Positions 2,894-42,505 are shown, counted from the stretch's first letter. The stretch: 64,000 bases of DNA from Patescibacteria group bacterium (GCA_013387205.1 WARV01000019.1:3642-67641); one strand, 5' to 3'. Numbers and translations: made by a program. The notes: a model not told the origin generated them from the sequence alone.

Positions 2894-2933
2894 CCTAGGA
2901 CCAATTTTAACGGCCGTTAAAATTGGTCCTAGG
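2894..2933. repeat. 40-bp perfect palindrome CCTAGGACCAATTTTAACGG/CCGTTAAAATTGGTCCTAGG (ACGGCCGT-centred family)
   Basis: Exact reverse-complement symmetry. Lies between the convergent protease gene and the PaaX-like gene. Confidence 0.9.
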
Positions 2934-2942
2934 TCGCAATTA

Positions 2943-3524
2943 CTACTTTAGATTGTAGCGCTTTTTTAAATCAGCGTCGTCATCAATTTCATCAACTTTA
3001 ATAATTCTGATGTAATATATTAGCCTGGATTGTTTTAAGTATTCAACAGCCTCTCTGTTTAAAGGAAACGGGTTAATATACACGCTTGCCTGTAATTTAT
3101 AAAAACTATTCCGTTTTAGCAAATCTCGTAGCTGATTTCTCTTTTCTTTGCAGTCTTCCGGAATGTCGAATACTATCATTCTCCACTTTTTATCCCATTG
3201 TTGGGGAGCGGGCAGCCTGGCTTTTACAAGCAACGCCTCAAGTTCTCCATTTTTTGTTAATTTAATAAATCTTTCTGCGTCTTTATTGACAAACTTTATC
3301 CAGCCGCGCTTTTGCCATTTATACAAAGTCCTTCTATAACTTCCCTGATTGCCAAATAAAGCACGATTCCTTAATTTGTAAGGATTCATTAGAGGAATCA
3401 ATGTGTCTTCAGCAGCTAAAAGGGATAACAAAAGTTTGCTGGACATGGTTAGTTCCTTTTTTCCCATATGTTTTTTGTTAATGGTCTGTTGTGACCATTT
3501 TTTACGGCCGTTTAAAACGGTCAC
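2943..3524 (-). CDS. PaaX-family-like winged-helix transcriptional regulator
   Basis: Central motif WDKKWRMIVFDIPEDCKEKRNQLRDLLKRNSFYKLQASVYINPFP resembles the PaaX middle domain. The true start is probably an internal Met (MGKKELT or MSSKLL). Confidence 0.5.
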   Translation of the reverse strand: MTVLNGRKKWSQQTINKKHMGKKELTMSSKLLLSLLAAEDTLIPLMNPYKLRNRALFGNQGSYRRTLYKWQKRGWIKFVNKDAERFIKLTKNGELEALLVKARLPAPQQWDKKWRMIVFDIPEDCKEKRNQLRDLLKRNSFYKLQASVYINPFPLNREAVEYLKQSRLIYYIRIIKVDEIDDDADLKKRYNLK

Positions 3525-3526
3525 AA
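3489..3526. repeat. Imperfect palindrome TTGTGACCATTTTTTACGGCCGTTTAAAACGGTCACAA (ACGGCCGT family) in the promoter/5' region of the PaaX-like gene
   Basis: Centre ACGGCCGT with ~12/16 matching arms. Confidence 0.7.
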
Positions 3527-3576
3527 TAATATTTTAGCAAACTGTTAATGTGAAATAAAATTGCAGAAAAAGACTA

Positions 3577-3605
3577 GACAAAAATCCTAAAATCTGCTAT
3601 AATAC
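3577..3605 (+). promoter_or_regulatory. Near-consensus sigma70 promoter TAGACA-17-TGcTATAAT (extended -10)
   Basis: Hexamers and 17-nt spacing read directly. Points away from the PaaX-like gene. Confidence 0.55.
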
Positions 3606-3611
3606 CTATAG

Positions 3612-3800
3612 AAAAGTTAGTTCTTCATTTAGAAGAAACAAAAATAAAAAATAATTAAATATAAAAATCCAGGCAAGGACTCTTGCCTATCACCATCCTT
3701 ATTTTTTGGATGTTCGGCTGCAAGGTGATTCTTGCAGCTAACCCTAGCTTCTTCTAGCTTTTCTTAAAAACCCCTAAAATCACTTTCTAGGGGTTTTTAT
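3612..3800 (+). ncRNA. Candidate small RNA (~190 nt) between the consensus promoter and a hairpin terminator (AAAAACCCCTA...TAGGGGTTTTT)
   Basis: No ORF. Contains internal hairpins (GGCAAGGACTCTTGCC; CTGCAAGGTGATTCTTGCAG). Strong terminator at 3766-3800. Confidence 0.25.
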
Positions 3801-3842
3801 TTTGCGGAATTTAAGGTAAAATGTTTAAGAAAGCAATAAATA

Positions 3843-3934
3843 TAATCCGAATTACCCGAATAATATCCAAATGACCCGAATAGGGAAGGAATCATTTGGG
3901 GCATTCGGATACTAATTCGGGGCATTAGGATTAC
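3843..3934 (+). repeat. CCGAAT-rich ~90-bp inverted-repeat leader element, copy A (ends 6 nt before the ATG at 3941)
   Basis: TAATCCGAATTACCCGAAT...CCAAATGACCCGAATAGGGAA...TTTGGGGCATTCGGAT...ATTCGGGGCATTAGGATTAC. One of five homologous copies. Confidence 0.9.
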
Positions 3935-3940
3935 ATCTTT

Positions 3941-4219
3941 ATGGATAACGAAGAAATAAAGTCACTTTTTGAGGAAAAATACCAGGATAATTTAGGTATG
4001 TCTTTTGATCAGTGGCAGGAAAAAGGCCCGAAGACAGAAGAGCAAGCCTACGCCCGCTGCATGGAAATAGACCGCGAGCTCAACCGCACTTATGACGAAT
4101 GGTTCGAGGCCAAAGGAGATAAAAGGGACCAGCTCCAGGACCACCGCGACAAGCTAAAAGCAGAATATGATTTAATAGAAGACATTTACCATTTAGAAGC
4201 AAACGATCGCAACTGGTAA
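3941..4219 (+). CDS. Hypothetical acidic protein (92 aa)
   Basis: ORF directly downstream of leader-element copy A. No recognisable domain. Confidence 0.5.
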   Translation: MDNEEIKSLFEEKYQDNLGMSFDQWQEKGPKTEEQAYARCMEIDRELNRTYDEWFEAKGDKRDQLQDHRDKLKAEYDLIEDIYHLEANDRNW

Positions 4220-4307
4220 CACCTCTACGAAATACTAAATTATACGAAAGGTACGAAACTACAGATTTAGTATATTTAGTATTTATTAGTATTTAGTAGA
4301 AACATTT

Positions 4308-5430: not shown

Positions 5431-6099
5431 ATGCTTTACGTTGTAGCTACGCCTATCGGCAATTTAAAAGATATTACTTTGCGCGCCATAGAAACACTAA
5501 GGTCTTGCGATTTTGTGATTGCGGAAAACCCTGGGTACTCCAAACGGCTTTTGCAGCATATTGATGCCTGGCCTAAAGAAATTGTCCAGTTTGCGGAGTT
5601 TAACGAGCAGCAAGTGGTAAAAGAACTGGCGCGCAGGATGGTAAAAGGAGAAGGCTGCTTGATTACCGATGCAGGCACGCCGGGAATTTCTGACCCTGGT
5701 TTCAGACTGGTAAGGGAATGTGTGAAAGAAGGCGTTCAGGTCGTGCCAATACCTGGCGCTTCCGCGGCAGTTGCCGCGCTTTCGGCTTCCGGCCTGCCTA
5801 CTGACAGGTTTTTATTCTTAGGCTTCCTGCAAAAGACCGCTGCCAAAACCATTGGCGCTTTGCAAGCCGCGGCAGACACCGAAGCTACGGCAATATTTTA
5901 CGAATCACCGGAAAGAATTTACAAAACCATGGGTTATGTTGCCAATGCGTTTCCGGCCAGCCAAGTCGTAATAGCGCGCGAACTGACTAAAATGCACGAA
6001 GAATTTATCCGCGGCACAGCCGGAGAAGTCCTGGAAAAGCTTAAAGAAAAAACATCCATCAAAGGCGAATTTACCGTTCTGATTAGCTTCAAATCTTAA
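5431..6099 (+). CDS. rsmI: 16S rRNA (cytidine1402-2'-O)-methyltransferase RsmI (tetrapyrrole-methylase fold)
   Basis: MLYVVATPIGNLKDITLRAIETL...ENPGYSKRLL N-terminus typical of RsmI. Start chosen at the internal ATG of the 5284 ORF. Confidence 0.8.
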   Translation: MLYVVATPIGNLKDITLRAIETLRSCDFVIAENPGYSKRLLQHIDAWPKEIVQFAEFNEQQVVKELARRMVKGEGCLITDAGTPGISDPGFRLVRECVKEGVQVVPIPGASAAVAALSASGLPTDRFLFLGFLQKTAAKTIGALQAAADTEATAIFYESPERIYKTMGYVANAFPASQVVIARELTKMHEEFIRGTAGEVLEKLKEKTSIKGEFTVLISFKS

Positions 6100-6128
6100 T
6101 TCATAATTCTAAATTCTTAATTCTATTT

Positions 6129-7666: not shown

Positions 7667-7670
7667 ACAA

Positions 7671-7700
7671 AAACCCTCCCGACCCCGGGAGGGTTTTATA
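7671..7700. terminator. Bidirectional terminator AAAACCCTCCCGACCCCGGGAGGGTTTT
   Basis: GC-rich stem CCCTCCCG/CGGGAGGG flanked by A and T runs. Lies between the small ORF and the tyrS 3' end. Confidence 0.7.
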
Positions 7701-12078: not shown

Positions 12079-12255
12079 TTTATACATAGAATAATCATTC
12101 TGAGCGACCGTAAAATAAATTCCTAATTCCTAATTCTCAAGCTCTAAACAATTTCTAATTTCCCAATTTCTTAATTTCAAATAATTTAGGCATTGGGTCA
12201 TTGGGATTTATTTAAAATAATTAGGTTAATTAAAAATTAGGTTAATTTTATATTA

Positions 12256-13650
12256 ATGCCCTATCTTCTCGCTCTCACTCTTCTCCTCACCCCAGCCTAC
12301 GCTATTAGGTTAAGTCTTTTTGGCCTTCCAACCAACTTTTTTATGGTTTGGGTATTTTTGTTCTGGATAATATTCTTTGCTTACTTAATAGCAAAAAAAC
12401 GTGTGTTAATATTTTTAACGGCCGTTAAAAATATTGATAAAAAAGTTTTAATTTTAACATCTTTATTTTTACTGTCGGGATTAATTTCTTTGTCTGCCAA
12501 AGGAATTGCCCAGAAAAAAATCGGCCAGTTTATTGTCTTATTCTTGCAGCCGATAAGCATATTTTTAATTTCAATTTTCATCATCAAGCAGCAACCCAAG
12601 ACAAAATCCTTACTGCTTGCCACATGCTACTTGCTACTAGCCGCAAGCGGCCTGTATGCCATTTTCCAATATTTCACTCTTGTAGGACTGCCACCAGAAT
12701 GGTGGGGAAACAGCGTTGAGCCTAAGAGAGCAATAAGTTTTTTCAGCCACCCAAACTTTTATGCTCTTTTCACCGCACCTCTTTTGGCATTATTGATTCC
12801 GCATTTGTCCGGCGTCATTCTGAGCCGAAATGCATCCGCCAGTTCGACAAGCTCATGGCGCCCTGAGCAAAGTCGAATGGGCGACGGCGAAGAATCTCAA
12901 GCCAAGAAAGAGATCCTTTGCTCCGCTTCCCCCTCAGCTAAAACTACCGGGGACAAGCAGGATGACGCCAAATTTAAATACTTATTTCTGATTAGCTGGT
13001 CGGTCGGCGCTATCGGCCTGCTCTTGTCCATGTCGCGCGCCGGATGGCTTGGCCTGGCCGCTGCAATTGCGGTTTATGCTTTTGTGGCAGCAGATAAAGA
13101 AATCAGGAAGATAGTAATAGGAGCGGCCGCAATTCTTTTTATAATAGTCGCTATTGTCCCTAACTTGCGCTACAGAGTAACTTTGCCATTTTACGGGGAA
13201 AAGTCTACAGTCTCGCGCCTGTCTTTATGGAATACAGGAATTAAAGGAATAAAAGAATCGCCAATAACCGGCCTTGGCTTAACCGGCTTTGCCAACAACT
13301 GGCAAAAATTAAATACCGATCCAAACTTAGATACCCATAACTTTCCGCATAATATCTTTTTGGATCTTTGGGTGGAAACAGGAATCTTAGGACTTATAAG
13401 CCTTATAGGACTAATAGGACTAATAATCTACCGCGGCCTGCGGCATTCTCTCCTCCTGTCCCAGGAGGAGTACCCAGCTTCGCTGGGGGAGGTGGTAGAA
13501 GTTAAGGATAAAGGATTAAAAATTAAAGATTTACCTCTTGCCGTCTCCCTTTTCCTCATCGCCCTAATTTTCCAAGGCCTCATCGACAACCCGTACTTCA
13601 AAAATGACCTGGCGATGGTGTTTTGGATAATACTTTCTTTGGCAGTTTAA
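12256..13650 (+). CDS. O-antigen ligase (Wzy_C) family membrane protein carrying an in-frame repeat insertion
   Basis: Multiple TM helices. SRAGWLG signature. Residues ~186-238 are encoded by an RPE-like element. Confidence 0.65.
   Translation: MPYLLALTLLLTPAYAIRLSLFGLPTNFFMVWVFLFWIIFFAYLIAKKRVLIFLTAVKNIDKKVLILTSLFLLSGLISLSAKGIAQKKIGQFIVLFLQPISIFLISIFIIKQQPKTKSLLLATCYLLLAASGLYAIFQYFTLVGLPPEWWGNSVEPKRAISFFSHPNFYALFTAPLLALLIPHLSGVILSRNASASSTSSWRPEQSRMGDGEESQAKKEILCSASPSAKTTGDKQDDAKFKYLFLISWSVGAIGLLLSMSRAGWLGLAAAIAVYAFVAADKEIRKIVIGAAAILFIIVAIVPNLRYRVTLPFYGEKSTVSRLSLWNTGIKGIKESPITGLGLTGFANNWQKLNTDPNLDTHNFPHNIFLDLWVETGILGLISLIGLIGLIIYRGLRHSLLLSQEEYPASLGEVVEVKDKGLKIKDLPLAVSLFLIALIFQGLIDNPYFKNDLAMVFWIILSLAV
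12409..12434. repeat. 26-bp perfect palindrome ATATTTTTAACGG/CCGTTAAAAATAT inside the O-antigen ligase CDS
   Basis: Exact symmetry. Encodes IFLTAVKNI on both strands. Confidence 0.9.
12811..12969 (+). mobile_element. RPE-like MITE copy (159 bp, 53 codons) inserted in-frame in the O-antigen ligase gene
   Basis: Terminal inverted repeats GGCGTCATTCTGAGC / GCAGGATGACGCC. Near-identical to the GGCGTCATCCTGAACCCGAATGCATC segment at 51245. Confidence 0.6.
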
Positions 13651-13656
13651 AGACTA

Positions 13657-13682
13657 CACTTTTTCACGGCCGTGAAAAAGTG
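13657..13682. repeat. 26-bp perfect palindrome CACTTTTTCACGG/CCGTGAAAAAGTG (ACGGCCGT family; terminator position)
   Basis: Lies between the O-antigen ligase stop and the SDR gene start. Confidence 0.85.
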
Positions 13683-13744
13683 CGGTATTATCTGCAAAAT
13701 AAATAGGACGGTAGATTTTTAAATAACATTAATCAACTCTTAAA

Positions 13745-14473: not shown

Positions 14474-14486
14474 ATAACAGACTATA

Positions 14487-14512
14487 AAACCGCCCGTTTT
14501 GGGCGGTTTTTT
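14487..14512. terminator. Bidirectional terminator AAAACCGCCCGTTTTGGGCGGTTTTTT
   Basis: Lies between the convergent SDR and jag genes. Confidence 0.75.
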
Positions 14513-14523: not shown

Positions 14524-14994
14524 CTATTTCTTGAGTTTTATTATTATTTTGCGGTGGGGTTCTTGGCCGATGCTTTCGGTGTAAACTTCCGGGCTGTGTT
14601 CCTGTAAATAAGCATGGACAAACCTGCGTTCGTAATTGGGCATTGGCTCTAAAGCCACCGGGCGGCCAGTGCGTTTTATCTGTTCCACCGCGCCTTTGGC
14701 GGTTTCTTTCAAAAACCATTCCCTTTTCCTTTTATAATCATCCACGTCAACAGTAAACCAGAAAGGTTCTGCAGATTGCAATTTCTTAGCAGCTAGGGCT
14801 TGGATTAATATCTGCAAAGAATGCAAAGTCGCGCCCTGCCGGCCAATAAGCAAATAAGAATCCTGGGAACTGATGTTAAAAATTAACCCCTTTGTAATAC
14901 TCTCCTCAAACTCCACACTGGCTTTAATCCCGCACTTATCCAGCAGCTCAATAATAATATTTTTTACTGTCTCGATTTTTTCGTAATCAGTCAT
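14524..14994 (-). CDS. jag: Jag/SpoIIIJ-associated RNA-binding protein (KH + R3H domains)
   Basis: IGRQGATL KH motif. R3H-like RRFVHAYLQEH. Downstream of yidC. Confidence 0.75.
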   Translation of the reverse strand: MTDYEKIETVKNIIIELLDKCGIKASVEFEESITKGLIFNISSQDSYLLIGRQGATLHSLQILIQALAAKKLQSAEPFWFTVDVDDYKRKREWFLKETAKGAVEQIKRTGRPVALEPMPNYERRFVHAYLQEHSPEVYTESIGQEPHRKIIIKLKK

Positions 14995-15058
14995 AACGTT
15001 AGAATTAAGAATTATGAATTAAGAATTATGAATTTTCATAATTCCTGATTCCTGCTTC

Positions 15059-15763
15059 CTAATTAGCAGGAGCGGACTGTTTGCGCATAATGTAATATTG
15101 CTGGGCGATGGCAAAAAGGGTGGTTACTATCCAGTATAAAGGAAGACCGGCCGGAAGCCTTATGGCTACAATTATACTAACGACTGGCAAAACATAAGTA
15201 GTTTGCAGGCTCATGGCTTTAGCCGTAGCATCCTGCTGCTGGCTGGCTTTTGGCATCATCATCTTTGACTGCCAGAATTGCGCCAAACCGGCCAAAACCC
15301 CTAAAACAATGCTAGGCTTGGCAAGGTTGATAAGGTTTAAAAAGTAAGGATCAATTGATCCGGGGTTATGGACAAAATTATACAAACCATTTAAGTTTCC
15401 TGCCAAAGCTTTATTAAAAACCTGGTAAAGAGCGATTAAAATCGGCAACTGGATCAGCAAAGGCAAGCAAGAAGACAGGGGATTAATTTTATATTCCCGG
15501 TATAAATCCATCATGGCCCTGGCCTGGCCTTCTTTGTCGTCTTTGTATTTTTCCCTGAGTTCGTTAAGCTTCGGCTGCAAATCGTTCATAGCCTTTTGGC
15601 TTTTAAGCGACTTGTGAAAGCTTGGAGCTAAAATGAGCCTGATAAGAATAGTTAGCAAAATAATCACAACTCCAATGTCATGCCCAGGAAGAATGTTGTA
15701 AAACATCACCAGCAAGTTCAGTAGAGGCCTGTAAATAATATCGTAATAAATAAAATGAAGCAT
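15059..15763 (-). CDS. yidC: Membrane protein insertase YidC (short form)
   Basis: YidC/Oxa1 core TM helices. Synteny rpmH-rnpA-yidD-yidC-jag. Confidence 0.85.
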   Translation of the reverse strand: MLHFIYYDIIYRPLLNLLVMFYNILPGHDIGVVIILLTILIRLILAPSFHKSLKSQKAMNDLQPKLNELREKYKDDKEGQARAMMDLYREYKINPLSSCLPLLIQLPILIALYQVFNKALAGNLNGLYNFVHNPGSIDPYFLNLINLAKPSIVLGVLAGLAQFWQSKMMMPKASQQQDATAKAMSLQTTYVLPVVSIIVAIRLPAGLPLYWIVTTLFAIAQQYYIMRKQSAPAN

Positions 15764-15786
15764 TAATTAATATGTTAATTTTATAT

Positions 15787-16062
15787 TTACTTGTTAGGGA
15801 CCAAGTCCACTCGCGGCTGAGCCCAAGGATTACATCTTGCAATTCTCTTGCCAGCTAAAAGACCGCCTTTTATCACACCATGTTTTTCTATGGCTTGTTT
15901 GCCGTATTCACTGCAAGAAGGATAATACTGGCAATAACCGTATGGATACCTGGCTTTAAACCAGCCGTGGTCAGGGGAAAGGGTTGCCTGGTAAAAACGG
16001 ATCAATAAAATTATTGACCTTTTAGGCAAGTTAACAATTATTTTATAAAACTTATTATCCAT
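15787..16062 (-). CDS. yidD: Membrane protein insertion efficiency factor YidD
   Basis: Conserved CxxxPxCSxY motif (CQYYPSCSEY). Synteny. Confidence 0.8.
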   Translation of the reverse strand: MDNKFYKIIVNLPKRSIILLIRFYQATLSPDHGWFKARYPYGYCQYYPSCSEYGKQAIEKHGVIKGGLLAGKRIARCNPWAQPRVDLVPNK

Positions 16063-16080
16063 ACTGGTATTATAACATTT

Positions 16081-16419
16081 TTAGATGCTAAATAACCGTG
16101 TCTTTTGGCCTAATTCTTTAAATTTTTCAACCAATTCTTTGTTTGGAAGCTTAGCAGCCTGCGGTTTTACCACAACCGCGTAGTCCCCAGGATGAAAAAT
16201 GCCTAAATTAAGCCTAATTGTTTCCCTTAACACCCTTTTCATCCTGTTTCTCTCAACTGCTTTTTTGGACACCTTTGTTGACACTACTACTGTAAAACGG
16301 ACACCTTCCGGCTTTTTCAGGTATTTAACAGTGAAATAAGGGTTAAAAAAAGGCCGTCCCCGCATGAAGACCAATTCAACATCTTTGGTTTTAGCGAGAC
16401 GGTTAGTTTTTTTAAACAT
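16081..16419 (-). CDS. rnpA: Ribonuclease P protein component
   Basis: Basic protein with KKAVERNRMKR RNR motif. Downstream of rpmH. Confidence 0.85.
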   Translation of the reverse strand: MFKKTNRLAKTKDVELVFMRGRPFFNPYFTVKYLKKPEGVRFTVVVSTKVSKKAVERNRMKRVLRETIRLNLGIFHPGDYAVVVKPQAAKLPNKELVEKFKELGQKTRLFSI

Positions 16420-16462
16420 AAATGATAATGGCGGCTGCGCAATTAAGGCAGCCGCCGCCTTT

Positions 16463-16600
16463 TTACACTACTGTTAATCTCTTGCGGCCCTTAGCTCTCC
16501 TGCTGGCCAGAACTTTTCTACCGGTTCTGGTTTGCATCCGCTTTAAGAACCCATGGCGTCTTTTTCTTCTTTTCACTTTTGGCTGGTATGTTCTCTTCAT
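16463..16600 (-). CDS. rpmH: 50S ribosomal protein L34
   Basis: Manual minus-strand translation gives [45 protein letters not shown]. Absent from the ORF track, which only lists ORFs of 60 aa or more. Confidence 0.9.
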
Positions 16601-16605
16601 TATAA

Positions 16606-16693
16606 AATCCTAATGCCCCGAATCAGCATCCGAATGCCCCAAACAATTCCCTTTCGGGTCATTTGGGTAAGAATTCGGGTAATTCGGATTATA
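16606..16693 (-). repeat. CCGAAT-rich leader element copy B (ends 5 nt before the rpmH ATG)
   Basis: Reverse complement is GTATAATCCGAATTACCCGAAT...CCAAATGACCCGAAAGGGAA...TTTGGGGCATTCGGATGCTGATTCGGGGCATTAGGATT. Confidence 0.9.
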
Positions 16694-16699
16694 CTTTTT

Positions 16700-16911
16700 A
16701 ATTTCTTGGTATATTATAAAGAAAAATAGAGGATTGGTCAATATTTCCCCTGACTTTTCTTTAATTTTCGCTAAGCACACTTTTTCCACAGCATATTCAC
16801 AGTATGTTAAAATTACCTTATAAACAAGCCTTAATTTTACTTGTTTACATGTTGATAACTCCCTGTTAAAATAAAAAAACACTGACAAACACAGATAAAA
16901 ACTAATTTTTT
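16700..16911. other. Candidate oriC part 1: DnaA-box-like motifs upstream of dnaA (TTTTCCACA at 16782; TTATCAACA reverse complement at 16852) in an AT-rich spacer
   Basis: 8/9 matches to TTATCCACA, read directly. Position between rpmH and dnaA. Confidence 0.4.
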
Positions 16912-19618: not shown

Positions 19619-19627
19619 ACAATAATA

Positions 19628-19719
19628 TAATCCGAATTATCCGAATATTGCAATCCAAATGCCCCGAATAGGGAACATTTGGGGTATTCGGGTAGTAATT
19701 CGGAGTATTAGGATTATAC
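19628..19719 (+). repeat. CCGAAT-rich leader element copy C (ends 3 nt before the recF ATG)
   Basis: TAATCCGAATTATCCGAAT...CCAAATGCCCCGAATAGGGAACATTTGGGGTATTCGGG...ATTCGGAGTATTAGGATTATAC. Confidence 0.9.
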
Positions 19720-19722
19720 TTC

Positions 19723-27653: not shown

Positions 27654-27672
27654 AATTATTCGATTAAATTAA

Positions 27673-27713
27673 TACAAGGATGCCCCCTGCGCAGCGCAGG
27701 GGGCATCCTTGTA
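27673..27713. terminator. Hairpin terminator TACAAGGATGCCCCCTGCG-CAG-CGCAGGGGGCATCCTTGTA followed by a T-run (AAGGATGCCCC hairpin family)
   Basis: 19-bp perfect stem. Confidence 0.8.
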
Positions 27714-27807
27714 TTTTAAGATTTTAATTTTTTGATGCCTATCCCAAAAAAATGTTATAATAAATGCACGCTTTGAGTAGAATCATTTTTTAGAAACCAA
27801 AAAACAA

Positions 27808-29460
27808 ATGTCCGTTCATAATTTTTTGCCAGGAACTGAAAAAGACCTTCAAAGGTCTTTGGATGACTTAAGCCGCAGGATGCAGGAAGACGAAGCTAAG
27901 GCTAAGGCTTCGGGTTTAGGCTTGCCTTACGTGGACTTGCATAATTTTCCCATAGATTTGAATGTGCTCGGGTTGTTTACCAAAGAAGAAGCGGAAAGCA
28001 GCGGAGCCGTGCCGTTTTTCAAGGATTTGACCGATTTAAGGATTGGCGCGACCGATCCGGAGAATCCGCTGCTTTTGGAGAAAATCGACGAGTTTTCCAA
28101 AAAACACAAAATCAGTTTGTACTTGATTTCCAAACCAAGCCTTGCCCAAGTCATGAAGTTTTACAGCAAAGTCCTGCGGCCTAAGCCTGGGCACGACGAG
28201 ACTGTTAGGGTAGAAACACAGGAAGAATATGGAAAAATACTCAAGCTGCTTGGGTCCGAAGAAGAGCAGGCAAAAAAAAGCGCCTCTGAACTTTTGGGGA
28301 TAATTTTCGGGGCCAGTATTTTTTTCAGCTCTTCCGATATCCATTTGGAGCCGGAAGATCATTTCGTCAAACTGCGCTACCGCATTGACGGCGTGTTACA
28401 GGACATGCTGCATTTTTCCAAAAGCCTGCAGCGCTCCATTGTTACCCGCATTAAAATAATTTCCAAGCTCAAGCTGAACGTGGAAAATGTTCCGCAAGAC
28501 GGCCGCATTACGTTTTATTATTTGGGAAAGCCCATAGATGTCCGCGTTTCAATTTTGCCGAGCGCTTACGGGGAGGAAATTGTCATGCGACTTTTGGGAA
28601 CCGGCGCGGTTAGCTTGAAACTTTCGGACTTAGGCCTGAGCCAGGATGACCAGGAAATCATAAACAGGCAGCTGGCCAAACCCAATGGCATGATAGTCAC
28701 CACCGGCCCGACCGGCAGCGGCAAGACCACGACTTTGTACGCGTTTATAAACGAACTCAACGAGCCTGGCGTAAAAATTATCACTTTGGAAGATCCGGTG
28801 GAATACAAGCTGGAAGGAATTGTGCAGACGCCAATCGACCATGGCGTGGATTTTGATTTTGCCAAAGGCCTGCGCGCAATTTTAAGGCAGGACCCTGACA
28901 TTGTCATGGTCGGCGAAATCCGCGACCAGGAAACTGCGGAAACTGCCATGCAGGCGGCATTGACCGGCCACTTGGTTTTGTCGACTTTGCACACCAATGA
29001 TGCGGCTGGCGCCATCCCGCGCTTGCTTAACATGGGAGTTAAGCCGTTTGTCATCGGTCCGGCGCTTTCGGCAGTTATTGCCCAAAGGCTGGTACGGAAA
29101 ATCTGCCAGAACTGCAAAACCAAAGCCGCGCTATCGCCGGCTGTAATGGAAAAAATCACTTTCCTGCTAAAGCAATTGCCAAAAAATAAAAAAGAAAAAT
29201 TGCCGAAAGCTTTGCAGTTTTACCATTCAACCGGCTGTGAGCAGTGTCATCATTTGGGATATAAAGGCAGGGTTGGCATTTACGAAGTTTTGGAAATTAC
29301 GCAAAAAGTACAGGATTTGATTATGAAAGATTCTGTCATGAGCGCGTACAAACAGGCTGGTGTTGGGCAAGGCATGATAACCATGGTCCAGGACGGGTTA
29401 CTTAAAGCCTTGGACGGAATTACGGATGTGGAAGAAGTGTTCAGGGTGGCAGGGGAGTGA
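27808..29460 (+). CDS. Type II secretion / type IV pilus assembly ATPase (GspE/PilB family)
   Basis: N-terminal GSPII_E_N-like domains, Walker A GPTGSGKTTTLYA, a Walker B region and a tetracysteine motif (CQNC...CEQC). Confidence 0.9.
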   Translation: MSVHNFLPGTEKDLQRSLDDLSRRMQEDEAKAKASGLGLPYVDLHNFPIDLNVLGLFTKEEAESSGAVPFFKDLTDLRIGATDPENPLLLEKIDEFSKKHKISLYLISKPSLAQVMKFYSKVLRPKPGHDETVRVETQEEYGKILKLLGSEEEQAKKSASELLGIIFGASIFFSSSDIHLEPEDHFVKLRYRIDGVLQDMLHFSKSLQRSIVTRIKIISKLKLNVENVPQDGRITFYYLGKPIDVRVSILPSAYGEEIVMRLLGTGAVSLKLSDLGLSQDDQEIINRQLAKPNGMIVTTGPTGSGKTTTLYAFINELNEPGVKIITLEDPVEYKLEGIVQTPIDHGVDFDFAKGLRAILRQDPDIVMVGEIRDQETAETAMQAALTGHLVLSTLHTNDAAGAIPRLLNMGVKPFVIGPALSAVIAQRLVRKICQNCKTKAALSPAVMEKITFLLKQLPKNKKEKLPKALQFYHSTGCEQCHHLGYKGRVGIYEVLEITQKVQDLIMKDSVMSAYKQAGVGQGMITMVQDGLLKALDGITDVEEVFRVAGE

Positions 29461-29744: not shown

Positions 29745-30926
29745 ATGAAAAAGTATTTCTCAATCGTGCTTTTTGTGGTGGTTTTTACAGCCATCGCCGT
29801 AGCCCAGGAGACCACGGAACAGCGCCTTATGGCATTGGCGCGTAATGAAGCGGTGGTTTCGCAGATGGCTACTCGCGCCGCTAAAACGGCGCAGCCGCAA
29901 CCGCAGGCTATTAGCGTAACTTGCGACCAGCCACTGTTTTACGCGTCGCGTAGCACCGGCGACATCCGCACCTTGTGCGATGTTAACGGTGACGGCAAAG
30001 CCGACTTTGTCGGCAAGTTCTTCGACATTCCAAACGGAAGCGGGTATTTTGTGAGCGCCCTGTCATCGAATCGCGGCGGAAACCAGTTGTTTGCCGCAAC
30101 CGATGCCGGCAGCGTGTTTACACTTACAGATACGGATCGGAACGGTGTCGCGGACCCGCAATTCGTCCGGGAAAACCCTGGCCTGTCATACACCGAACGG
30201 TTGTTGCCGCTTTTTGACGGAACGATGAGTTACGTTTACACAGAGAACTCATCAACCGGCCGGTTTAATTTGTATAGGCTGGAGTCCACGCAGACCAGCG
30301 TGTCGTCAGGCGACGTGCCTAGGTACGCGCAACGCATTGCCGGATCTGTTATGGCCCGGGACGGCGTTTACACCATCGACACAGGAATGGATGCGGTGCG
30401 CAAAATCGGCTTCAATGGTGTTGGCTATCTTGACAACAAGAATAGCAGCAACGAAGTTTTATACAAAGGCGGCAGGATTACCAGCATTGCGCTGGACGAG
30501 AAGTTGGGATTGATGTTTGTCCTGCATGCTGGCGACTGTAACGACCAGCTGATTCCATCGGTTTCCGCCACTCCAGCGCCTTGCGCCGCCGCATCTGTGG
30601 TTGTGGTGAATTTGAACAAAGGTGTAATGGGGTCTGCAAGGGTTCTGGCAAACGGCCCGGAATTGAACGTGTATTATAGCTTCACCGCCCATTCAATGGT
30701 CGCGCGCAATGGCAAGTTGTATGTCGTCGTCAATAGCCCAGGAAACAACGGCCATTGCATTCTGGAATATCGGTATGACCAATTCAAAGGCCAGCCGGTA
30801 AACCCGGCGGTATTTGCGGATGCTGACCTGCTCGGAGAATGGGAATTTGTTGGCGCACTGTCGTTTTTCGACGGCGGGCCGATAAATAACAACGTTGCGG
30901 TTCCGGTAAATCCAGTAAATCCGTAG
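29745..30926 (+). CDS. Secreted protein with FG-GAP/Ca-binding-like DxNGDG repeats (GC-rich, probably horizontally acquired)
   Basis: Signal peptide. Repeats DVNGDGKAD and DTDRNGVAD. Local GC is visibly higher than in flanking genes. Confidence 0.55.
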   Translation: MKKYFSIVLFVVVFTAIAVAQETTEQRLMALARNEAVVSQMATRAAKTAQPQPQAISVTCDQPLFYASRSTGDIRTLCDVNGDGKADFVGKFFDIPNGSGYFVSALSSNRGGNQLFAATDAGSVFTLTDTDRNGVADPQFVRENPGLSYTERLLPLFDGTMSYVYTENSSTGRFNLYRLESTQTSVSSGDVPRYAQRIAGSVMARDGVYTIDTGMDAVRKIGFNGVGYLDNKNSSNEVLYKGGRITSIALDEKLGLMFVLHAGDCNDQLIPSVSATPAPCAAASVVVVNLNKGVMGSARVLANGPELNVYYSFTAHSMVARNGKLYVVVNSPGNNGHCILEYRYDQFKGQPVNPAVFADADLLGEWEFVGALSFFDGGPINNNVAVPVNPVNP

Positions 30927-30995: not shown

Positions 30996-31038
30996 CAACA
31001 AGGGGCATCCTTGATCAGATCAAGGATGCCCCTTGTTG
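30996..31038. repeat. 43-bp near-perfect palindrome CAACAAGGGGCATCCTTGATC-A-GATCAAGGATGCCCCTTGTTG (AAGGATGCCCC family)
   Basis: Exact 21-bp arms. Shares the GGATGCCCC core with the hairpin at 27673. Confidence 0.85.
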
Positions 31039-37704: not shown

Positions 37705-40700
37705 ATGTCCAAAATCAGTATACTTAAATTTTTAATTTTTGGATTTTTTTTGTTTTTTGGTTTATTTCCTATAAAGCATGCGCTGGCCGCGCCCTTTTTA
37801 ACTTTGAGTCCGTTTAGCGGGCACGCGGGCGCAATCAGCGTGAGTGGCGGCGGGTTTTCCTCCGGGGAAGAAGTAAAAATCTTTTTAAGAGATTCAGCAG
37901 GATTGCCAGCTGCTACGGTCAAGGCCAAGGCCAACTCGCTGTTCGGTCCGGTAACGGTTAATATTCCCGGCGATACCACCCAGGGCAATATTATGGTTAC
38001 TGCCGTAGGTTCCACGAGCGGTACGACAGCCTCTAATACTTATTATGTTGTGCCTTTTGCTCCGGTGCTTGATGTAAAATCTAGCGGGAACACGCCAGGG
38101 ACGGTTATTACTTTGTCTGGTACAGGTTTTGCTCCGGGAGAACAAGTAAATTTCTTTATGGGCGGGGCTGGCGGCGGATCGACAAAGGCTGACGGCAAGG
38201 GAAATTTTTCCAAATTTTCTTTTACCATCCCGAGCCTCACTCCCGACACTTACCAGATAGAAGCCAAAGGCGAAACTTCTGGCAGCACGGCAAAAAATTA
38301 TTTTTATGTCGGTACTTTCTATCCCGTAGCATCGCCTTCTTCGTATTATGTCATGCCAGGCCAGGCAATAACGTTTAACGGTTACAATTTTGTACCGGGC
38401 GAACAGGTTAGTGTGGTGATGGGGGAAGGGCAGCAGCCGGTGGGCACTATAACTGTGTCAGGCAAAGGTGATTTTAAAAATGCCGGCAGCTTTACGCCTT
38501 CGGTTGACTTAGCCGGGCAAATATTGTCATTCCATTTAAAGAGTTCCAAGTCGGCAGCTGATATTCCGGCCACGGTATCCATCGGCCAGTTTAATTCTTT
38601 GGTCACTCCTTCGGCTTATTACTTAATTCCGGGGCAAACTTTGGATTTTTACGGCAAGGGCTTTGCCCCTAACGAAACCATCCAAATATACCAAGGTTCT
38701 GCTGCTGACAGCTTGAGCCCGACAAATACCATCACTGCCGATAAAAATGGCGGCTTTACCAAAGCGGGCAGCCTGGTTATTCCGTATTCGGCTGCAAATT
38801 CCAGTTTGGTTTTTAAGTTTGTCGGACAGAGCAGTAATACTTCTTCCAGTTTGTCAGTTTCGGTCGGTGCGTTTATTCCGGAAATCCACCCTTCGGAATA
38901 CTACCTGACGCCGGGCAAAACTTTTACAGTTTGGGGCAAGGGCTTTGCCGCGGGTGAAAAAGTTACAGTTACGGCCGGGCAGGAATCGGTTACGGTCGCT
39001 ACGGACAAGTTTGGCGTGTTTAAAACCGCCGGGCCGTTTACCGCGCCATATGAGCCAGGTACTAAAGTCGTGGTTACCGCCACAGGGCAAAGTAGCAGTG
39101 CTAGCATCAGCGTAACTTTGGGAGTCGGCAGTTTGCACCCGAATATTATCCCGGACAGTTACTATATAACTCCCGGAGACCAGGTTAAATTGTCCGGATA
39201 CGGGTTTGCGCCAGGCGAAGATGTTTTGCTGCAAAACGGTCAGCAAGAAACTTTGGCAACCATAAAGACCGACAAATACGGAAACTTCACGAACTATTCG
39301 GTATCCACGCCTTTTAGCGGTGTAAAAACTTTGGGCTTTAATTTTGTCGGCGCCAAGAGCGGAGCTGTGGGTACGGTTTCAGTCAGTATTGCCACGCTCC
39401 ATCCTTTGGTAATTCCTGATACTTATTACGTTGTGCCGGGTTCAACTATTAGGGTGATGGGTACCGGCTTTTCCAGAGGCGAGCCTATTACCATAACTGG
39501 CGGCACTACGGCTTTGACAGTCAATGCCACCAAAGACGGCTATACCCCCTGGATGCCGGTGACTTTGCCGATGGATTTGCTGGCCAAGGAAATTACCATT
39601 ACGTTTACGGGCAATGCCACGGGAGCGAGTAATTCCGCGGTTATCGGACTGGCTCCGTTTTTGCCTCAAATTTATCCGAGCACGTATTACACCGCTCCGG
39701 GAAGCCTTATAAACCTTAAAGGTACGGGTTTTGCCGCCGGAGAAAAAATAAATATTTTGTTCAACAAGGAAAACGCCACATCCACGACAGCGGATTTGAG
39801 CGGCGCGTTTTCCATCCAAGGGTTTAAAATTCCCATTACGTCTGATACTGCCTATTTTAATTTTGCAGGCGTCAGGAGCCAGGCTAGCGCATCTTTGAAT
39901 ATCGCCTTAGCTCCGTTTAACCCGCAAATCTACCCGAGTACGTATTACGCGGCGCCGGGCCAGACCGTGGATTTCTCCGGCGTCGGGTTTGCCCCGGGGG
40001 AGTCGGTTGATATTGCCATGAACAGCCAGCCGGTTGAATCCGATGCGGTAAATGACCAGGGCCGGTTTGCCACCAAGAAAATCACCATCCCGATAGACGC
40101 TACCAAGGCAGCTGTATTCACGTTCACCAGCCCAATCTCACACGCCAGCGCAACCATTACAGTAGCCTTGTCCGCGTTCCAGCCGCAAATCTACCCGAGC
40201 CAATATTTCTCGTCTCCAGGCACGCCTTTGTCGTTTAAAGGTTTTGGCTTTGCGCCGGGCGAAAAAATATCCATCATTTATAACGAACAAGAAGTGGCCA
40301 CAGCCACAGCCGATGCCAAGGGCAACTTCCTGTCAGATAAAATTAATTTGCCGATGGGCGTAACCAAGGCGCACTTTACTTTTGACAGCTCGATTTCCCA
40401 TTACAGCAATCCGATTGATGTTTCTGTGGGTGCCTTAAGTCCGGTGGTGACTTTGAGCAGTTATTACGAAGCCGGCGGCAAGCCGCTGACAGTTTACGGT
40501 ATGGGCTTTGCTTCCAAAGAGCAGGTTGCAATAACGTTTGATAATAACCAGCTCGGGACAGTTACCGCGGACCAGTATGGAAGTTTTTCTTTTAAAACCA
40601 CAGTGCCGTTTGTCGAAGCCGGAGAAAAACAGGTCCAAGCCACAGGACAGACAAGCGGTGTCAGTTCTTCAGCCACGTTTGGCTTGCCGCAAGCGTTCAC

Positions 40701-40974
40701 TAACGTGCAGCTTAAAGCTTACGCCGGAGCGCCGGGCAGTGCGGTAACTTTTGTTGGCAGCGGTTTTTCGCCATCGGAAACCGTAAATATCACCACTGAC
40801 AAGACAGGGGAGGCGGCAGTTTACAGTTTTAAGGCGGACGCCAAAGGAAACTTTAATAATTCCGGGTTTGTCATTCCGGCTAACTTTAAAGGCGGGCAGT
40901 TAATCATTACCCTAAAAGGCGAACACAGCCTGGCAGCGAGCAAGATTACTTATTATGTGACAGGAGCACAATAG
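37705..40974 (+). CDS. Large cell-surface protein (1089 aa) with ~12 tandem ~85-aa Ig-like repeats
   Basis: N-terminal signal/TM. The periodic motif P-S-YY-(V/L)-x-PG-x-x-(I/L)-x-x-x-G-x-GF-A-PGE-x-V recurs about every 85-90 aa. Confidence 0.8.
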   Translation: MSKISILKFLIFGFFLFFGLFPIKHALAAPFLTLSPFSGHAGAISVSGGGFSSGEEVKIFLRDSAGLPAATVKAKANSLFGPVTVNIPGDTTQGNIMVTAVGSTSGTTASNTYYVVPFAPVLDVKSSGNTPGTVITLSGTGFAPGEQVNFFMGGAGGGSTKADGKGNFSKFSFTIPSLTPDTYQIEAKGETSGSTAKNYFYVGTFYPVASPSSYYVMPGQAITFNGYNFVPGEQVSVVMGEGQQPVGTITVSGKGDFKNAGSFTPSVDLAGQILSFHLKSSKSAADIPATVSIGQFNSLVTPSAYYLIPGQTLDFYGKGFAPNETIQIYQGSAADSLSPTNTITADKNGGFTKAGSLVIPYSAANSSLVFKFVGQSSNTSSSLSVSVGAFIPEIHPSEYYLTPGKTFTVWGKGFAAGEKVTVTAGQESVTVATDKFGVFKTAGPFTAPYEPGTKVVVTATGQSSSASISVTLGVGSLHPNIIPDSYYITPGDQVKLSGYGFAPGEDVLLQNGQQETLATIKTDKYGNFTNYSVSTPFSGVKTLGFNFVGAKSGAVGTVSVSIATLHPLVIPDTYYVVPGSTIRVMGTGFSRGEPITITGGTTALTVNATKDGYTPWMPVTLPMDLLAKEITITFTGNATGASNSAVIGLAPFLPQIYPSTYYTAPGSLINLKGTGFAAGEKINILFNKENATSTTADLSGAFSIQGFKIPITSDTAYFNFAGVRSQASASLNIALAPFNPQIYPSTYYAAPGQTVDFSGVGFAPGESVDIAMNSQPVESDAVNDQGRFATKKITIPIDATKAAVFTFTSPISHASATITVALSAFQPQIYPSQYFSSPGTPLSFKGFGFAPGEKISIIYNEQEVATATADAKGNFLSDKINLPMGVTKAHFTFDSSISHYSNPIDVSVGALSPVVTLSSYYEAGGKPLTVYGMGFASKEQVAITFDNNQLGTVTADQYGSFSFKTTVPFVEAGEKQVQATGQTSGVSSSATFGLPQAFTNVQLKAYAGAPGSAVTFVGSGFSPSETVNITTDKTGEAAVYSFKADAKGNFNNSGFVIPANFKGGQLIITLKGEHSLAASKITYYVTGAQ

Positions 40975-41016
40975 GAATTAAGAATTTAGAATTATGAATT
41001 AAGAATTTGGCAGTAA

Positions 41017-41058
41017 CAATTCCCGGATTTCGAGCGATCGCTCGAAATCCGGGAATTG
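41017..41058. repeat. 42-bp perfect palindrome CAATTCCCGGATTTCGAGCGA/TCGCTCGAAATCCGGGAATTG
   Basis: Exact reverse-complement symmetry, centre CGATCG. Downstream of the giant surface-protein gene. Confidence 0.9.
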
Positions 41059-41083: not shown

Positions 41084-41113
41084 TGAATGGCTCAATCGGG
41101 GTTGAGCCATTCA
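41084..41113. repeat. Hairpin TGAATGGCTCAA-TCGGGG-TTGAGCCATTCA (GAATGGCTCAACC family)
   Basis: 12-bp stem. Same stem sequence as the hairpins at 22050 and 56296. Confidence 0.8.
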
Positions 41114-41121
41114 GGGCATTT

Positions 41122-41150
41122 AAAAACCCCCGTTAACGGGGGTTTTATAA
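41122..41150. terminator. Bidirectional terminator AAAACCCCCGTTAACGGGGGTTTT
   Basis: 24-bp perfect GC-rich palindrome flanked by A and T runs. Immediately downstream of rpsT on the minus strand. Confidence 0.85.
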
Positions 41151-41151
41151 T

Positions 41152-41415
41152 TTATTTGATTTTAGCGATTGCTAAAGCCAGACGGGATTTCTTCCTGGAG
41201 GCGGTGTTTTTCTTGATTACGTTCTTTTTGGCGGCTTTGTCCAAGGCTGACATGACTTTTTTCATGGCTTCCATGGCTTCGTTTTTTTTGCCTTCGGCAA
41301 TCAGCTTCTTGACTTTTTTGACTTCGGACTTAAAAGCATCTTTGGATTTGATGTTTCTGGCTTTGCGGCGGAGAGACTGTCTCATGGCTTTGGCCGCGGA
41401 CTTGGTGTTTGGCAT
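41152..41415 (-). CDS. rpsT: 30S ribosomal protein S20
   Basis: MPNTKSAAKAMRQSLRRKARN N-terminus typical of S20. 87 aa, basic. Confidence 0.9.
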   Translation of the reverse strand: MPNTKSAAKAMRQSLRRKARNIKSKDAFKSEVKKVKKLIAEGKKNEAMEAMKKVMSALDKAAKKNVIKKNTASRKKSRLALAIAKIK

Positions 41416-41422
41416 TTATTAA

Positions 41423-41510
41423 ACCTTTGACATTTGACCTTTGACTTTAGGATGTCAATTGTCAGATGTTAATTGTCAATTGTAATGAAATTAATTTGAC
41501 ACGGCCTTGA
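41423..41510 (-). promoter_or_regulatory. rpsT 5' region with three tandem GTCAAAGG repeats and several TTGACA boxes
   Basis: Minus strand reads CAATTGACAATTAACATCTGACAATTGACATCCTAAAGTCAAAGGTCAAATGTCAAAGGTTTAATAA-ATG. Confidence 0.5.
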
Positions 41511-41574
41511 TAGATTTTTGCAGCAGGTTCTATTAAGGTAAAATTATTTTATCAAAATTCGGGGGAAAAAGCAA

Positions 41575-41604
41575 GGGGCGGAATTGCTTAAGCAATTCCG
41601 CCCC
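41575..41604. terminator. 30-bp perfect palindrome GGGGCGGAATTGCTT/AAGCAATTCCGCCCC, terminator of the minus-strand gene ending at 41612
   Basis: GC-rich stem flanked by A and T runs. Confidence 0.75.
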
Positions 41605-41611
41605 AAAGATT

Positions 41612-42355
41612 TCATCGAGAGTAAAATAGTCCAGCGCGGTATTCCGGCTTGCCGTGCAACAGTAACATGGCCGCAATGCCAAAACCTTTTTTGAATTTGA
41701 TTGCCAGCCGCGGTCCGCCTTTGCGCTCTTCTTCCAGGCCGTGGTTGGCTAAAGCTAAGGCGGCACCGAACTCTACCCGGCCGGTTTTGATGCTGGCGTG
41801 GGAGCCGTCGGAATAAAAATTCCTCCGGCCGTTGGTGGCTAGCAGGGTTTGCAGAAAAGCCCCTTCGCTGACAAGTCCCACGCCTTCTTCGCCGAGTTCA
41901 AGCTTCCAGCGGATGCTGTAGGCCGGCTCGAGCACGCGGTATTTTTCTGTCTCGTTTTTGGCGTGAACCGCCTCTTTGGTGGCTGGTTCGCTTTCGTGCC
42001 CGCCGATGCTGTCGATGAACGCGGCATTCAGTCCAGGAGATATCCGCAAAATGTGCTTGTAGCGGAAGTTCTTGGCTACGCCAAATGCCCCCACCCGGTA
42101 AGTTTCGGAGCCGTAATACAAGGCGCCGATGCCGGCCCTGCCTCGGGCAACGCCCAAATCCAGCGAAGCGCTATGCACCCTTTCGGAAAAAACAAGTTCC
42201 GTGCTTTCCAGTTCCGCTGCAGCTTTTCTTTCTGCCACAGCCTCATGCCTGCCGCTGGTTTTGTCGACAGGTTCACTGTCACTTGCCAGAAGCGCCGGTA
42301 AGCCAATTAGGCATAAAAAAAATACTCTCTTTCCCATCATTCCTCCCTTTTTCAA
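41612..42355 (-). CDS. GC-rich secreted protein, possibly beta-rich/porin-like (probably horizontally acquired)
   Basis: Signal peptide. GC clearly above the window background. No confident family assignment. Confidence 0.45.
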   Translation of the reverse strand: MKKGGMMGKRVFFLCLIGLPALLASDSEPVDKTSGRHEAVAERKAAAELESTELVFSERVHSASLDLGVARGRAGIGALYYGSETYRVGAFGVAKNFRYKHILRISPGLNAAFIDSIGGHESEPATKEAVHAKNETEKYRVLEPAYSIRWKLELGEEGVGLVSEGAFLQTLLATNGRRNFYSDGSHASIKTGRVEFGAALALANHGLEEERKGGPRLAIKFKKGFGIAAMLLLHGKPEYRAGLFYSR

Positions 42356-42463
42356 TCTTATCGAGACTACAAAACAGCCCCAAGATTTCCAGTAAAATTT
42401 ACACTATTTTACTGCTTTGGTCAAGATTTTAGATAATTGCTATTATAAGTTACGTAATAAAAA

Positions 42464-42505
42464 TTACTCCTCTATAAATGACGGCCGTCATTTATAGAGG
42501 AGTAA
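42464..42505. repeat. 42-bp perfect palindrome TTACTCCTCTATAAATGACGG/CCGTCATTTATAGAGGAGTAA (ACGGCCGT family)
   Basis: Exact symmetry. 22-bp core identical to the palindrome at 21252. Confidence 0.9.

Follow-up and report, generated by a model that had tools for sequence, protein, structure and literature searches.

Long zero-loop palindromes bracket a small PaaX-like gene in Patescibacteria and are candidate autoregulatory operators

The mini-PaaX gene and its two palindromes

A stretch of 64,000 nucleotides (nt) from a Patescibacteria group bacterium (GCA_013387205.1 WARV01000019.1:3642-67641), analysed as a whole and here called the window, encodes a small PaaX-like protein, mini-PaaX, at 2943-3467 on the minus strand. 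It is the sole PaaX-like gene in the window. Two long palindromes centred on the octamer ACGGCCGT bracket it, and its neighbours are a protease gene, a tRNA-Ile gene and gyrA. The bracket consists of the following features, the promoter being called, as throughout this work, by consensus match only:

2893-2934, strandless: downstream site, a 42-bp perfect palindrome, ACCTAGGACCAATTTTAACGG/CCGTTAAAATTGGTCCTAGGT
2943-3467, minus strand: mini-PaaX gene, 174 amino acids (aa) from the ATG at 3467, winged helix-turn-helix (wHTH) plus Cas2-like domain
3489-3526, strandless: upstream site, an imperfect palindrome with a 36-bp core at 3490-3525, TGTGACCATTTTTTACGG/CCGTTTAAAACGGTCACA, 22 nt upstream of the ATG at 3467
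3526-3554, minus strand: promoter-like site of the mini-PaaX gene, TTCACA-17-TATTAT, whose -10 abuts the palindrome

The downstream site begins 8 nt past the mini-PaaX stop codon and separates the gene from a convergent protease gene (1199-2863, plus strand). Counted from the dyad, a GACC box occupies positions 12-15 in both copies. An alternative extended -10, TGCTAAAAT, matches the consensus at 3539-3531, 5 nt from the upstream palindrome. The database entry for the protein (P0001) starts at 3446 and comprises 167 aa. Two orthologues in other genomes (62-65% identical) show the same palindrome-gene-palindrome layout. Between the extended -10 and the ATG, both have an imperfect ACGGCCGT-centred palindrome in a position equivalent to that in the window (L006, L007); the extended -10 elements, TGCTATAAT and TGTTATAAT, respectively, are located 3 nt from the palindromes. 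A perfect palindrome of 36-40 bp follows shortly past the stop of the orthologous gene (L001/L006 and L004/L007). The core TAACGGCCGTTA is kept across the window and the two orthologues. The outer arms vary by genome and are common to both copies within a genome. In the window and in L001/L004, the neighbouring genes that were checked have housekeeping functions.

The octamer ACGGCCGT is present in exactly six copies in the window (2910, 3504, 12418, 13666, 21265 and 42481). A preliminary description of this DNA had reported six copies with about one expected. Dinucleotide shuffles agree, with a mean of 0.83, a maximum of 4 and none of 100 shuffles reaching six, though a stricter 7-mer Markov model expects 3.1. 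The central hexamer CGGCCG is itself common (26 copies), so that the octamer count is only mildly unusual. The strong part of the observation is the embedding of the octamer in long palindromes, not its number. Outward extension from the centres yields five perfect zero-loop palindromes of 26-42 bp and one imperfect copy, as expected from the earlier statement that every octamer is embedded. The 22-bp core ATAAATGACGGCCGTCATTTAT, described as common to two copies, is indeed identical at 21258 and 42474. Positions given previously are right to within one base; the first copy measures 42 bp (2893-2934) instead of 40 bp (2894-2933), and the copy placed inside a coding sequence (CDS) does lie there, with 28 bp (12408-12435) rather than 26 bp. 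The assignment of all six copies to one family does not hold. Arms are common only to the pair at the mini-PaaX gene, and the other four copies have unrelated outer arms.

The window is hairpin-rich overall, with 40 hairpins having stems of at least 9 bp versus 1-5 in shuffles. Most of the others are ordinary terminators, in which GC-rich stems are flanked by A and T tracts. The ACGGCCGT class has the reverse architecture, AT-rich arms around a GC-rich apex. At the Rfam gathering threshold, only the tRNA was detected in the window, and nothing credible was found in 3500-3960. The window has no CRISPR array or parS-like site, and no 20-mer occurs three or more times. Avoidance of a restriction-modification site was rejected as an explanation, and the earlier suggestion of such a link is unsupported: CGGCCG and GGCC (266 copies, a count without an expected value) are frequent, with no sign of avoidance. 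Uptake sequences were rejected as well. A uptake signal sequence (USS) of the Haemophilus type adjoins the copy at 13657, yet USS and DNA uptake sequence (DUS) motifs are at background level in the window.

The mini-PaaX protein matches PaaX_M (PF20803) with 69.4 bits against a cut-off of 24 (E=2.8e-19). CRISPR_Cas2 (6.8e-6) and HTH families are the only other Pfam matches, all of them weak; PF07848 gave no hit at E<=0.01. An AlphaFold2 model (mean pLDDT 79) predicts a wHTH of the order H-H-H-beta-hairpin-H, followed by a beta-alpha-beta-beta-alpha-beta ferredoxin fold. The top Foldseek match is E. coli PaaX (8a39, E=8e-5, 170 aligned columns), other best matches are Rv0674 and a Jannaschia PaaX-like protein, and Cas2 structures rank below the PaaX-like matches. 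Pfam detects no PaaX_C effector domain, and the protein ends after the Cas2-like domain (174 aa; 170-200 aa in relatives). The NCBIfam equivalog for PaaX (TIGR02277) is failed with 33.5 bits against a cut-off of 264.55, and the one for Cas2 (TIGR01573) is passed with 29.1 bits against 24.5. Further matches to Cas2 come from PADLOC (2e-7) and from PDB profiles (6qxf, 5xvn). Like Cas2/VapD-type ferredoxin-fold nucleases, the C-terminal half retains the Cas2-type motifs F-D-[IM]-P in beta1 and Q-x-S-V-[YF]; the motif FDIPE is conserved and the catalytic-type Asp of Cas2 is nearly invariant in the family. Members are named 'CRISPR-associated endonuclease Cas2' in NCBI and JGI because they pass TIGR01573, probably a systematic misannotation in genomes of the candidate phyla radiation (CPR). 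Mini-PaaX is not a Cas2 in the CRISPR sense. Unlike Cas2, its domain is fused to a wHTH, and palindromes bracket the gene, which adjoins no repeat-spacer array. The window lacks such an array, the neighbours are housekeeping genes, and no Cas1 domain was found among the 20 window open reading frames (ORFs) scanned against Pfam.

Occurrence and anatomy of the palindrome bracket

More than 586 relatives emerged from a protein-alignment scan with one genome per species, and 80 loci were retained. Almost all of these originate from Patescibacteria lineages; one is labelled Fimivivens and two are labelled Gammaproteobacteria. The related loci were picked via the protein, and the reverse test, starting from the palindromes, covered the flanks in those loci and about 32 kb of unrelated loci. 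The sampled loci amount to 1.24 Mb, with genes called as simple ORFs. Palindromes with a score of at least 8 are located on both flanks in 62 of the 80 loci. For 48 of the 80 loci, the two palindromes share one central hexamer, an arrangement absent from all 369 similarly sized control ORFs in these loci. The preliminary description had proposed a site for a dimeric protein and had pointed to a PaaX-like protein; both suggestions receive strong support from the two copies bracketing such a gene and from a layout conserved at about 80 Patescibacteria loci. Long zero-loop palindromes number 126 in the 1.24 Mb, with CGGCCG as centre in 76, CGATCG in 15 and CTATAG in 9. Family-type centres are present in 103 palindromes; 82 of these are at most 260 bp away from a mini-PaaX gene, a zone of about 7% of the sequence, and 21 are orphans. 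The orphans are typically full-length and occur between tandem (12), convergent (4) and divergent (2) genes or inside genes (3). Closer relatives use the centre NCGGCCGN; more distant ones use ACGATCGT, GCTATAGC, CCTAGG and others.

A profile search yielded 3,048 clusters (50% identity) at E<=1e-10. Genomes harbor several mini-PaaX paralogues, at least 2-5 in each genome sampled, for example five loci from Doudnabacteria bin-7426. Paralogues within one genome are accompanied by distinct palindrome arms. Across species, they hold conserved syntenic positions between housekeeping genes, and the nucleotide identity between any two cassettes never exceeds 80%; neither finding hints at recent mobility. 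Neighbours in the relatives are presumably kef/cysS, macB/ndh, rfbB/rfbD and ftsA, as read by us from the sequences. A conserved partner gene beside the cassette was rejected, these neighbours being functionally unrelated housekeeping genes. No paa genes (phenylacetate catabolism) were found next to mini-PaaX in the window or in the relatives examined. Three loci (L045, L077, L015) contain a third cognate copy, so that a neighbouring gene of unrelated function is bracketed as well. Relatives on viral contigs were not found, and a phage origin was rejected on this ground. In the literature searched, nothing joins PaaX-like or Cas2-like proteins of Patescibacteria with palindromes or describes palindromic operators in CPR bacteria; the bracketing of mini-PaaX genes by palindromes is likewise without a description there.

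The anatomy of the element was derived by comparing the four half-sites of each locus. Their agreement is at least 0.85 at positions 1-5, 0.65-0.77 at 6-11 and 0.84-0.87 at 13-16, and reaches background (about 0.3) from position 19. The element therefore comprises 2 x 18 = 36 bp in three zones. The centre usually reads CGGCCG and is replaced by CGATCG or CTATAG in distant relatives; all 49 loci compared have C at position 3, and 44 of the 49 have G at position 2. Positions 6-11 form a spacer almost purely of A/T. The outer box at positions 12-18 is of mixed composition and locus-specific. All 12 half-sites of an orthologue trio (L036/L052/L054) retain the box ATCACA, even those in which the spacer is no longer symmetric. 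The median distance is 25 bp from the upstream copy to the ATG and 5 bp from the stop to the downstream copy. Between syntenic orthologues, identity is 0.95 for the centre and, for the arms, 0.61 (positions 6-11) and 0.51 (positions 12-18), compared with a background level of 0.37 in the flanks. The more two loci differ in the Cas2-like domain, the more they differ in the centre (r=0.56; partial Mantel r=0.46, p=5e-4). For the N-terminal domain and the outer box, the corresponding correlation is weak (partial r=0.08, p=0.03), and both values are uncorrected for kinship.

Proposed function and competing explanations

The upstream copies overlap the predicted core promoter in varying register. 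The palindrome is placed between a TTGACA -35 and the -10 in L008, L016 and L013, directly after the extended -10 in the window, L006 and L007, and just before the -10 in L082, L083 and L055. A copy between -35 and -10 is not transcribable as a hairpin. A T-rich tail (at least 5 T in the 8 nt past the stem) follows only 13% of the downstream copies. Mismatches on the sense strand of imperfect copies show no excess of G·U over A·C (35:38 upstream, 32:21 downstream, p=0.17). Canonical terminators coexist with the palindromes in the window, e.g. at 7670-7697, 14486-14510 and 42669-42692. The scarcity of T-rich tails, the lack of a G·U excess and the promoter overlap point to a function as duplex DNA and away from intrinsic terminators. 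The earlier judgement that the palindromes are not generic terminators is supported in the same way, by the missing U-tract, the AT-rich stems and the promoter overlap. Bidirectional intrinsic terminators are similar in being long intergenic palindromes, often right past stops and between convergent genes. They differ from the mini-PaaX sites, which have an AT-rich stem with a GC-rich apex, no flanking A/T tracts, and upstream copies over promoters.

The palindromes are probably operators of autoregulated mini-PaaX dimers, members of a Patescibacteria-wide family of small PaaX-like repressors. One dimer would cover one 36-bp site (2 x 18 bp). The dyad centre R-C-G-R/Y-C-G-Y (ACGG/CCGT in the window) and the A/T-rich spacer are shared by the whole family, and the box at 12-18 varies from paralogue to paralogue. 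Each gene would own two cognate sites, for the window gene 3489-3526 and 2893-2934. Occupation of the upstream site, over the gene's own core promoter, would cause autorepression by occlusion of RNA polymerase, as by PaaX at Px. The second site, a few bp past the stop, may act as an anchor for looping or as a roadblock that insulates the gene from its neighbours. In E. coli, PaaX binds the 39-bp operator TGATTC-N27-GAATCA and, by impeding RNA polymerase, represses transcription from its own promoter, Px (PMC9493321). PaaX of E. coli and Pseudomonas (Pa, Pz, Px and pac promoters) and mini-PaaX have in common an N-terminal wHTH followed by a Cas2-like domain, in PaaX the middle domain, and a long inverted-repeat site of similar span (6+27+6 = 39 bp versus 36 bp); repression by overlap with the own promoter would be a third likeness. 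Unlike PaaX, mini-PaaX lacks PaaX_C, which senses phenylacetyl-CoA in PaaX, and has 174 aa versus the 305-316 residues of the 8a39 chain. It remains below the TIGR02277 cut-off, and paa genes are missing nearby. All 36 bp of its site are palindromic around a conserved dyad centre rich in GC, the gene is bracketed by two such sites, and several orthogonal paralogues share a genome of roughly 1 Mb.

Several findings weigh against plain operators. The downstream copy hugs the stop codon and, in the window and 14 of 58 scored loci, lies between convergent genes; it cannot be a promoter operator there. The correlations of site and protein divergence were computed without a correction for phylogeny, and for the four other copies of the window no cognate protein was found. 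Two proteins that are 73% identical with a near-identical wHTH (L017 and L022) have unrelated arms, so that recognition of the outer box does not follow a simple helix code. Differences between the two copies of a gene are still symmetric inside each copy at 59 of 169 positions (35%). Together with the L017/L022 arms, this indicates that arm-to-arm homogenisation is at work, which a plain operator does not require. It may stem from a known mutational process, the template-switch correction of quasi-palindromes, or from selection for an extrudable structure. The latter leads to structure-forming boundary elements: the palindromes would extrude as cruciforms or hairpins, the protein or a host factor would read structure and apex, and the copies would mark the ends of an inserted cassette. 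Such elements would explain the perfect symmetry through the centre, the compensated differences, the unrelated arms next to the same wHTH and the compact cassettes at tight housekeeping junctions such as rfbB/rfbD and kef/cysS. However, box and centre are kept where the spacer symmetry is lost (L036/L052/L054, upstream copy of L006), the length is fixed at 2 x 18 bp whereas stems vary, and neutral template-switch correction can maintain symmetry with no demand for selection on structure. Boundary elements are considered unlikely. Hairpins acting in RNA, which would stabilise or terminate the mRNA at its 5' and 3' ends and might be bound by the Cas2-like domain with its RNase fold, are highly improbable. 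Downstream copies close to the stop are in accordance with them; so is the upstream copy of L006, L007 and the window, which would form a 5' untranslated region over the ribosome-binding region, and a simple terminator scan flags the 2893 and 42464 copies on the minus strand. These points are opposed by the rare T-rich tails, the missing G·U bias on the sense strand and the centres between -35 and -10. In addition, an RNA hairpin has no need of a self-complementary loop, and the tail of the 21252 copy is on the wrong strand.

Mobility is a further alternative, and a recombination site had also been among the options of the preliminary description. Gene and flanking palindromes would together form a mobile unit akin to pdif modules or integron cassettes, the orphans would be solo footprints or entry sites, and the Cas2-like domain (FDIPE) may nick the centre. 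The several paralogues between unrelated housekeeping genes, the near-identical flanking copies, which are direct as well as inverted repeats, the third cognate copies around neighbouring genes in L045, L077 and L015, the nearly invariant catalytic-type Asp and a gain of about 40 bp at 21252 (see below) are compatible with it. Against it stand the cassette identities of at most 80%, the conserved syntenic positions, the absence from viral contigs, the lack of a recombinase or transposase domain in Pfam, and the symmetric centre, which gives recombination no directionality; recombination sites of this kind are held to be a shade less probable again than boundary elements. pdif modules of Acinetobacter plasmids consist of short genes or gene pairs between two palindromic recombinase sites (Xer) of about 28 bp and occur in varied contexts. 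Unlike these, the mini-PaaX units give no evidence of recent movement, have a symmetric 2 x 18 bp centre instead of XerC-6-XerD, and have sites that co-vary with the enclosed protein. REP/REPIN-RAYT systems are alike in a single-copy gene flanked on both sides by its cognate palindrome (48-62 of 80 mini-PaaX loci, 0 of 369 controls), in different paralogues pairing with different element families and in extra copies dispersed intergenically. Mini-PaaX is, however, not an HUH/Y1 transposase according to Pfam, its orphan sites are the minority (21 versus 82 gene-adjacent ones in the 1.24 Mb of sampled loci, which include no complete genome), and the sites are perfect zero-loop palindromes of fixed length without a GTAG-type head. 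The likeness is only in architecture, and the REP-like element considered in the preliminary description fails on protein type and, in the sampled loci, seemingly on copy number. Chance or composition, e.g. codon-driven palindromes, deserves next to no credence as an explanation of the six window copies. The Markov expectation of 3.1 rather than 0.8 and the in-CDS copy, which encodes the conserved, intrinsically near-palindromic peptide FLTAVKN, are in its favour. Perfect palindromes of 26-42 bp are nevertheless far beyond the shuffles (stems of at most 10 bp), and the gene-flanking pattern is repeated in dozens of genomes, which already refutes chance for the gene-flanking pair.

Autoregulated operators remain the preferred explanation. 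The association with the gene, the site anatomy, the promoter overlap, the protein fold and the missing terminator and RNA signatures are observations, whereas binding, the division of the site between the protein domains and the role of the downstream copy are inferred. A bolder reading, which is doubtful, regards the palindrome-gene-palindrome unit as a self-contained module of a new kind. Its wHTH-Cas2-like protein would read the CGGCCG dyad of its own two 36-bp palindromes and perhaps nick it by means of the retained acidic motif of Cas2 type. Throughout Patescibacteria, the unit would have colonised housekeeping-gene junctions, with solo palindromes, 21252-21285 for example, as footprints or landing sites. 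If true, the unit would represent a living intermediate between Cas2/VapD-type nucleases and PaaX-type regulators. To our knowledge, gene regulation in the mostly uncultivated Patescibacteria is essentially uncharted. With 3,048 clusters and at least 2-5 paralogues per genome, mini-PaaX may be a main transcription-factor family of the CPR genomes of about 1 Mb. The predicted site is written next to each mini-PaaX gene, which makes regulator-site pairs testable with synthesised proteins and without cultivation. The misannotation as Cas2 can skew surveys of CRISPR systems in CPR genomes. Among PaaX-type regulators, a bracket of two sites and a conserved GC dyad are unusual, and they raise the question of the role of the Cas2-like domain on DNA.

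Orphan copies and other features of the window

Four ACGGCCGT palindromes and one possible relative are located away from the mini-PaaX gene:

12408-12435, strandless: orphan, 28 bp, inside a Wzy_C-like CDS (12256-13650), without outer box, encoding L-I-F-L-T-A-V-K-N-I
13657-13682, strandless: orphan, 26 bp, 7 nt past the Wzy_C-like stop and 63 nt before an SDR gene
21252-21285, strandless: orphan, 34 bp, most of the 47-bp gap between a DUF721/DciA-like gene and rsmE
42464-42505, strandless: orphan, 42 bp, 165 bp beyond the canonical terminator 42669-42692 (minus strand) and 109 bp upstream of gene 41612-42355 (minus strand)
41017-41058, strandless: possible relative, a 42-bp perfect zero-loop palindrome centred on GCGATCGC

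All four orphans lack the GACC box seen in the pair at the mini-PaaX gene. They are best read as putative sites of other paralogues elsewhere in the genome, or as relic or solo sites. A mobile insertion of the 12408 copy into the Wzy_C-like gene was rejected, since orthologues have the same residues FLTAVKN without a gap. At the same codons of L088 (3157-3176), a 20-bp ACGGCCGT palindrome is kept as TTTTTCACGGCCGTGAAAAA via a paired change (TTA to TTC, GTT to GTG). In L086 and L087, the palindrome centre is broken by one synonymous change each. The copy is partly a coding coincidence, and selection at the DNA level may also contribute. The copy 13657-13682 overlaps the -35 and the spacer of a promoter-like TTCACG-17-TATTAT (13663-13691) upstream of the SDR gene. 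The equivalent position in orthologous loci is taken by ordinary GC-stem terminators. The DUF721/DciA-like gene and rsmE are only 1-5 bp apart in two relatives (L089, L090), without a palindrome, and the copy 21252 is therefore a gain of about 40 bp in the lineage of the window. Its half-site differs from the sites flanking the L033 paralogue by 2 of 18 positions, a suggestive match which is not significant after multiple testing. Hidden mini-PaaX genes next to 42464 were rejected with hhalign probabilities below 1%; the neighbouring genes are unrelated. The centre GCGATCGC of 41017-41058 is used by more distant mini-PaaX relatives, and a cognate gene for it was not found in the window. This palindrome could instead be an ordinary terminator of gene 37705-40974.

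The neighbourhood of the replication origin extends over 14524-21246, with jag/khpB, yidC, yidD and rnpA on the minus strand and dnaA, dnaN, recF and the DUF721/DciA-like gene on the plus strand. The names yidD and rnpA were assigned by synteny with L087. The minimum of the cumulative GC skew falls in the interval from about 12 to 20 kb. The distance to dnaA is at most about 25 kb for each of the six ACGGCCGT palindromes, an observation from one genome only. Next to the mini-PaaX bracket, the tRNA-Ile gene (1048-1124, minus strand) has the anticodon TAT (UAU). A tRNA-Ile with this anticodon for the decoding of AUA is uncommon among bacteria. On the plus strand, a strong promoter-like site (3575-3603) combines TAGACA-17-TATAAT with a TG upstream and is followed by an ORF-free stretch of about 200 nt. 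This stretch is hairpin-rich, ends in a terminator-like hairpin (3770-3800) and matches no Rfam family at threshold. The region 3560-3810 may encode a small RNA, judging from these signals. Repeats rich in CCGAAT/ATTCGG occupy 3820-3935, upstream of an ORF at 3941-4219. Inverted matches to them (20-25 nt) occur at 16673-16693, just upstream of dnaA, and at 22533-22557.

A second hairpin family has the conserved stem ACGGCTAAAWCCT and a non-palindromic loop of 7-9 nt (697-735, 43348-43386 and 48029-48065). Its arms are present six times versus 0.16 expected. All copies are intergenic, one of them between convergent genes, and the stem sequence is conserved, unlike that of the ACGGCCGT class. 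These hairpins could be the site of another regulator or a REP-like element. Two near-perfect palindromes of 43-45 bp with 1-nt loops (27671-27715 and 30996-31038) have a common motif, AAGGATGCCCC / GGGGCATCCTT, and flank the genes 27808-29460 and 29745-30926. An exact direct repeat of 30 bp, ATAGATTGCTTCCCCCTTCGCCAAGGCTTC, was identified at 51295-51324 and 55717-55746, 4.4 kb apart. AT-rich repeats of the GAATTATGAATTAAGAATT type are intergenic and occur on both strands, at 6094-6123, 15008-15033, 40975-41007 and 52795-52814 and also in 12100-12250.

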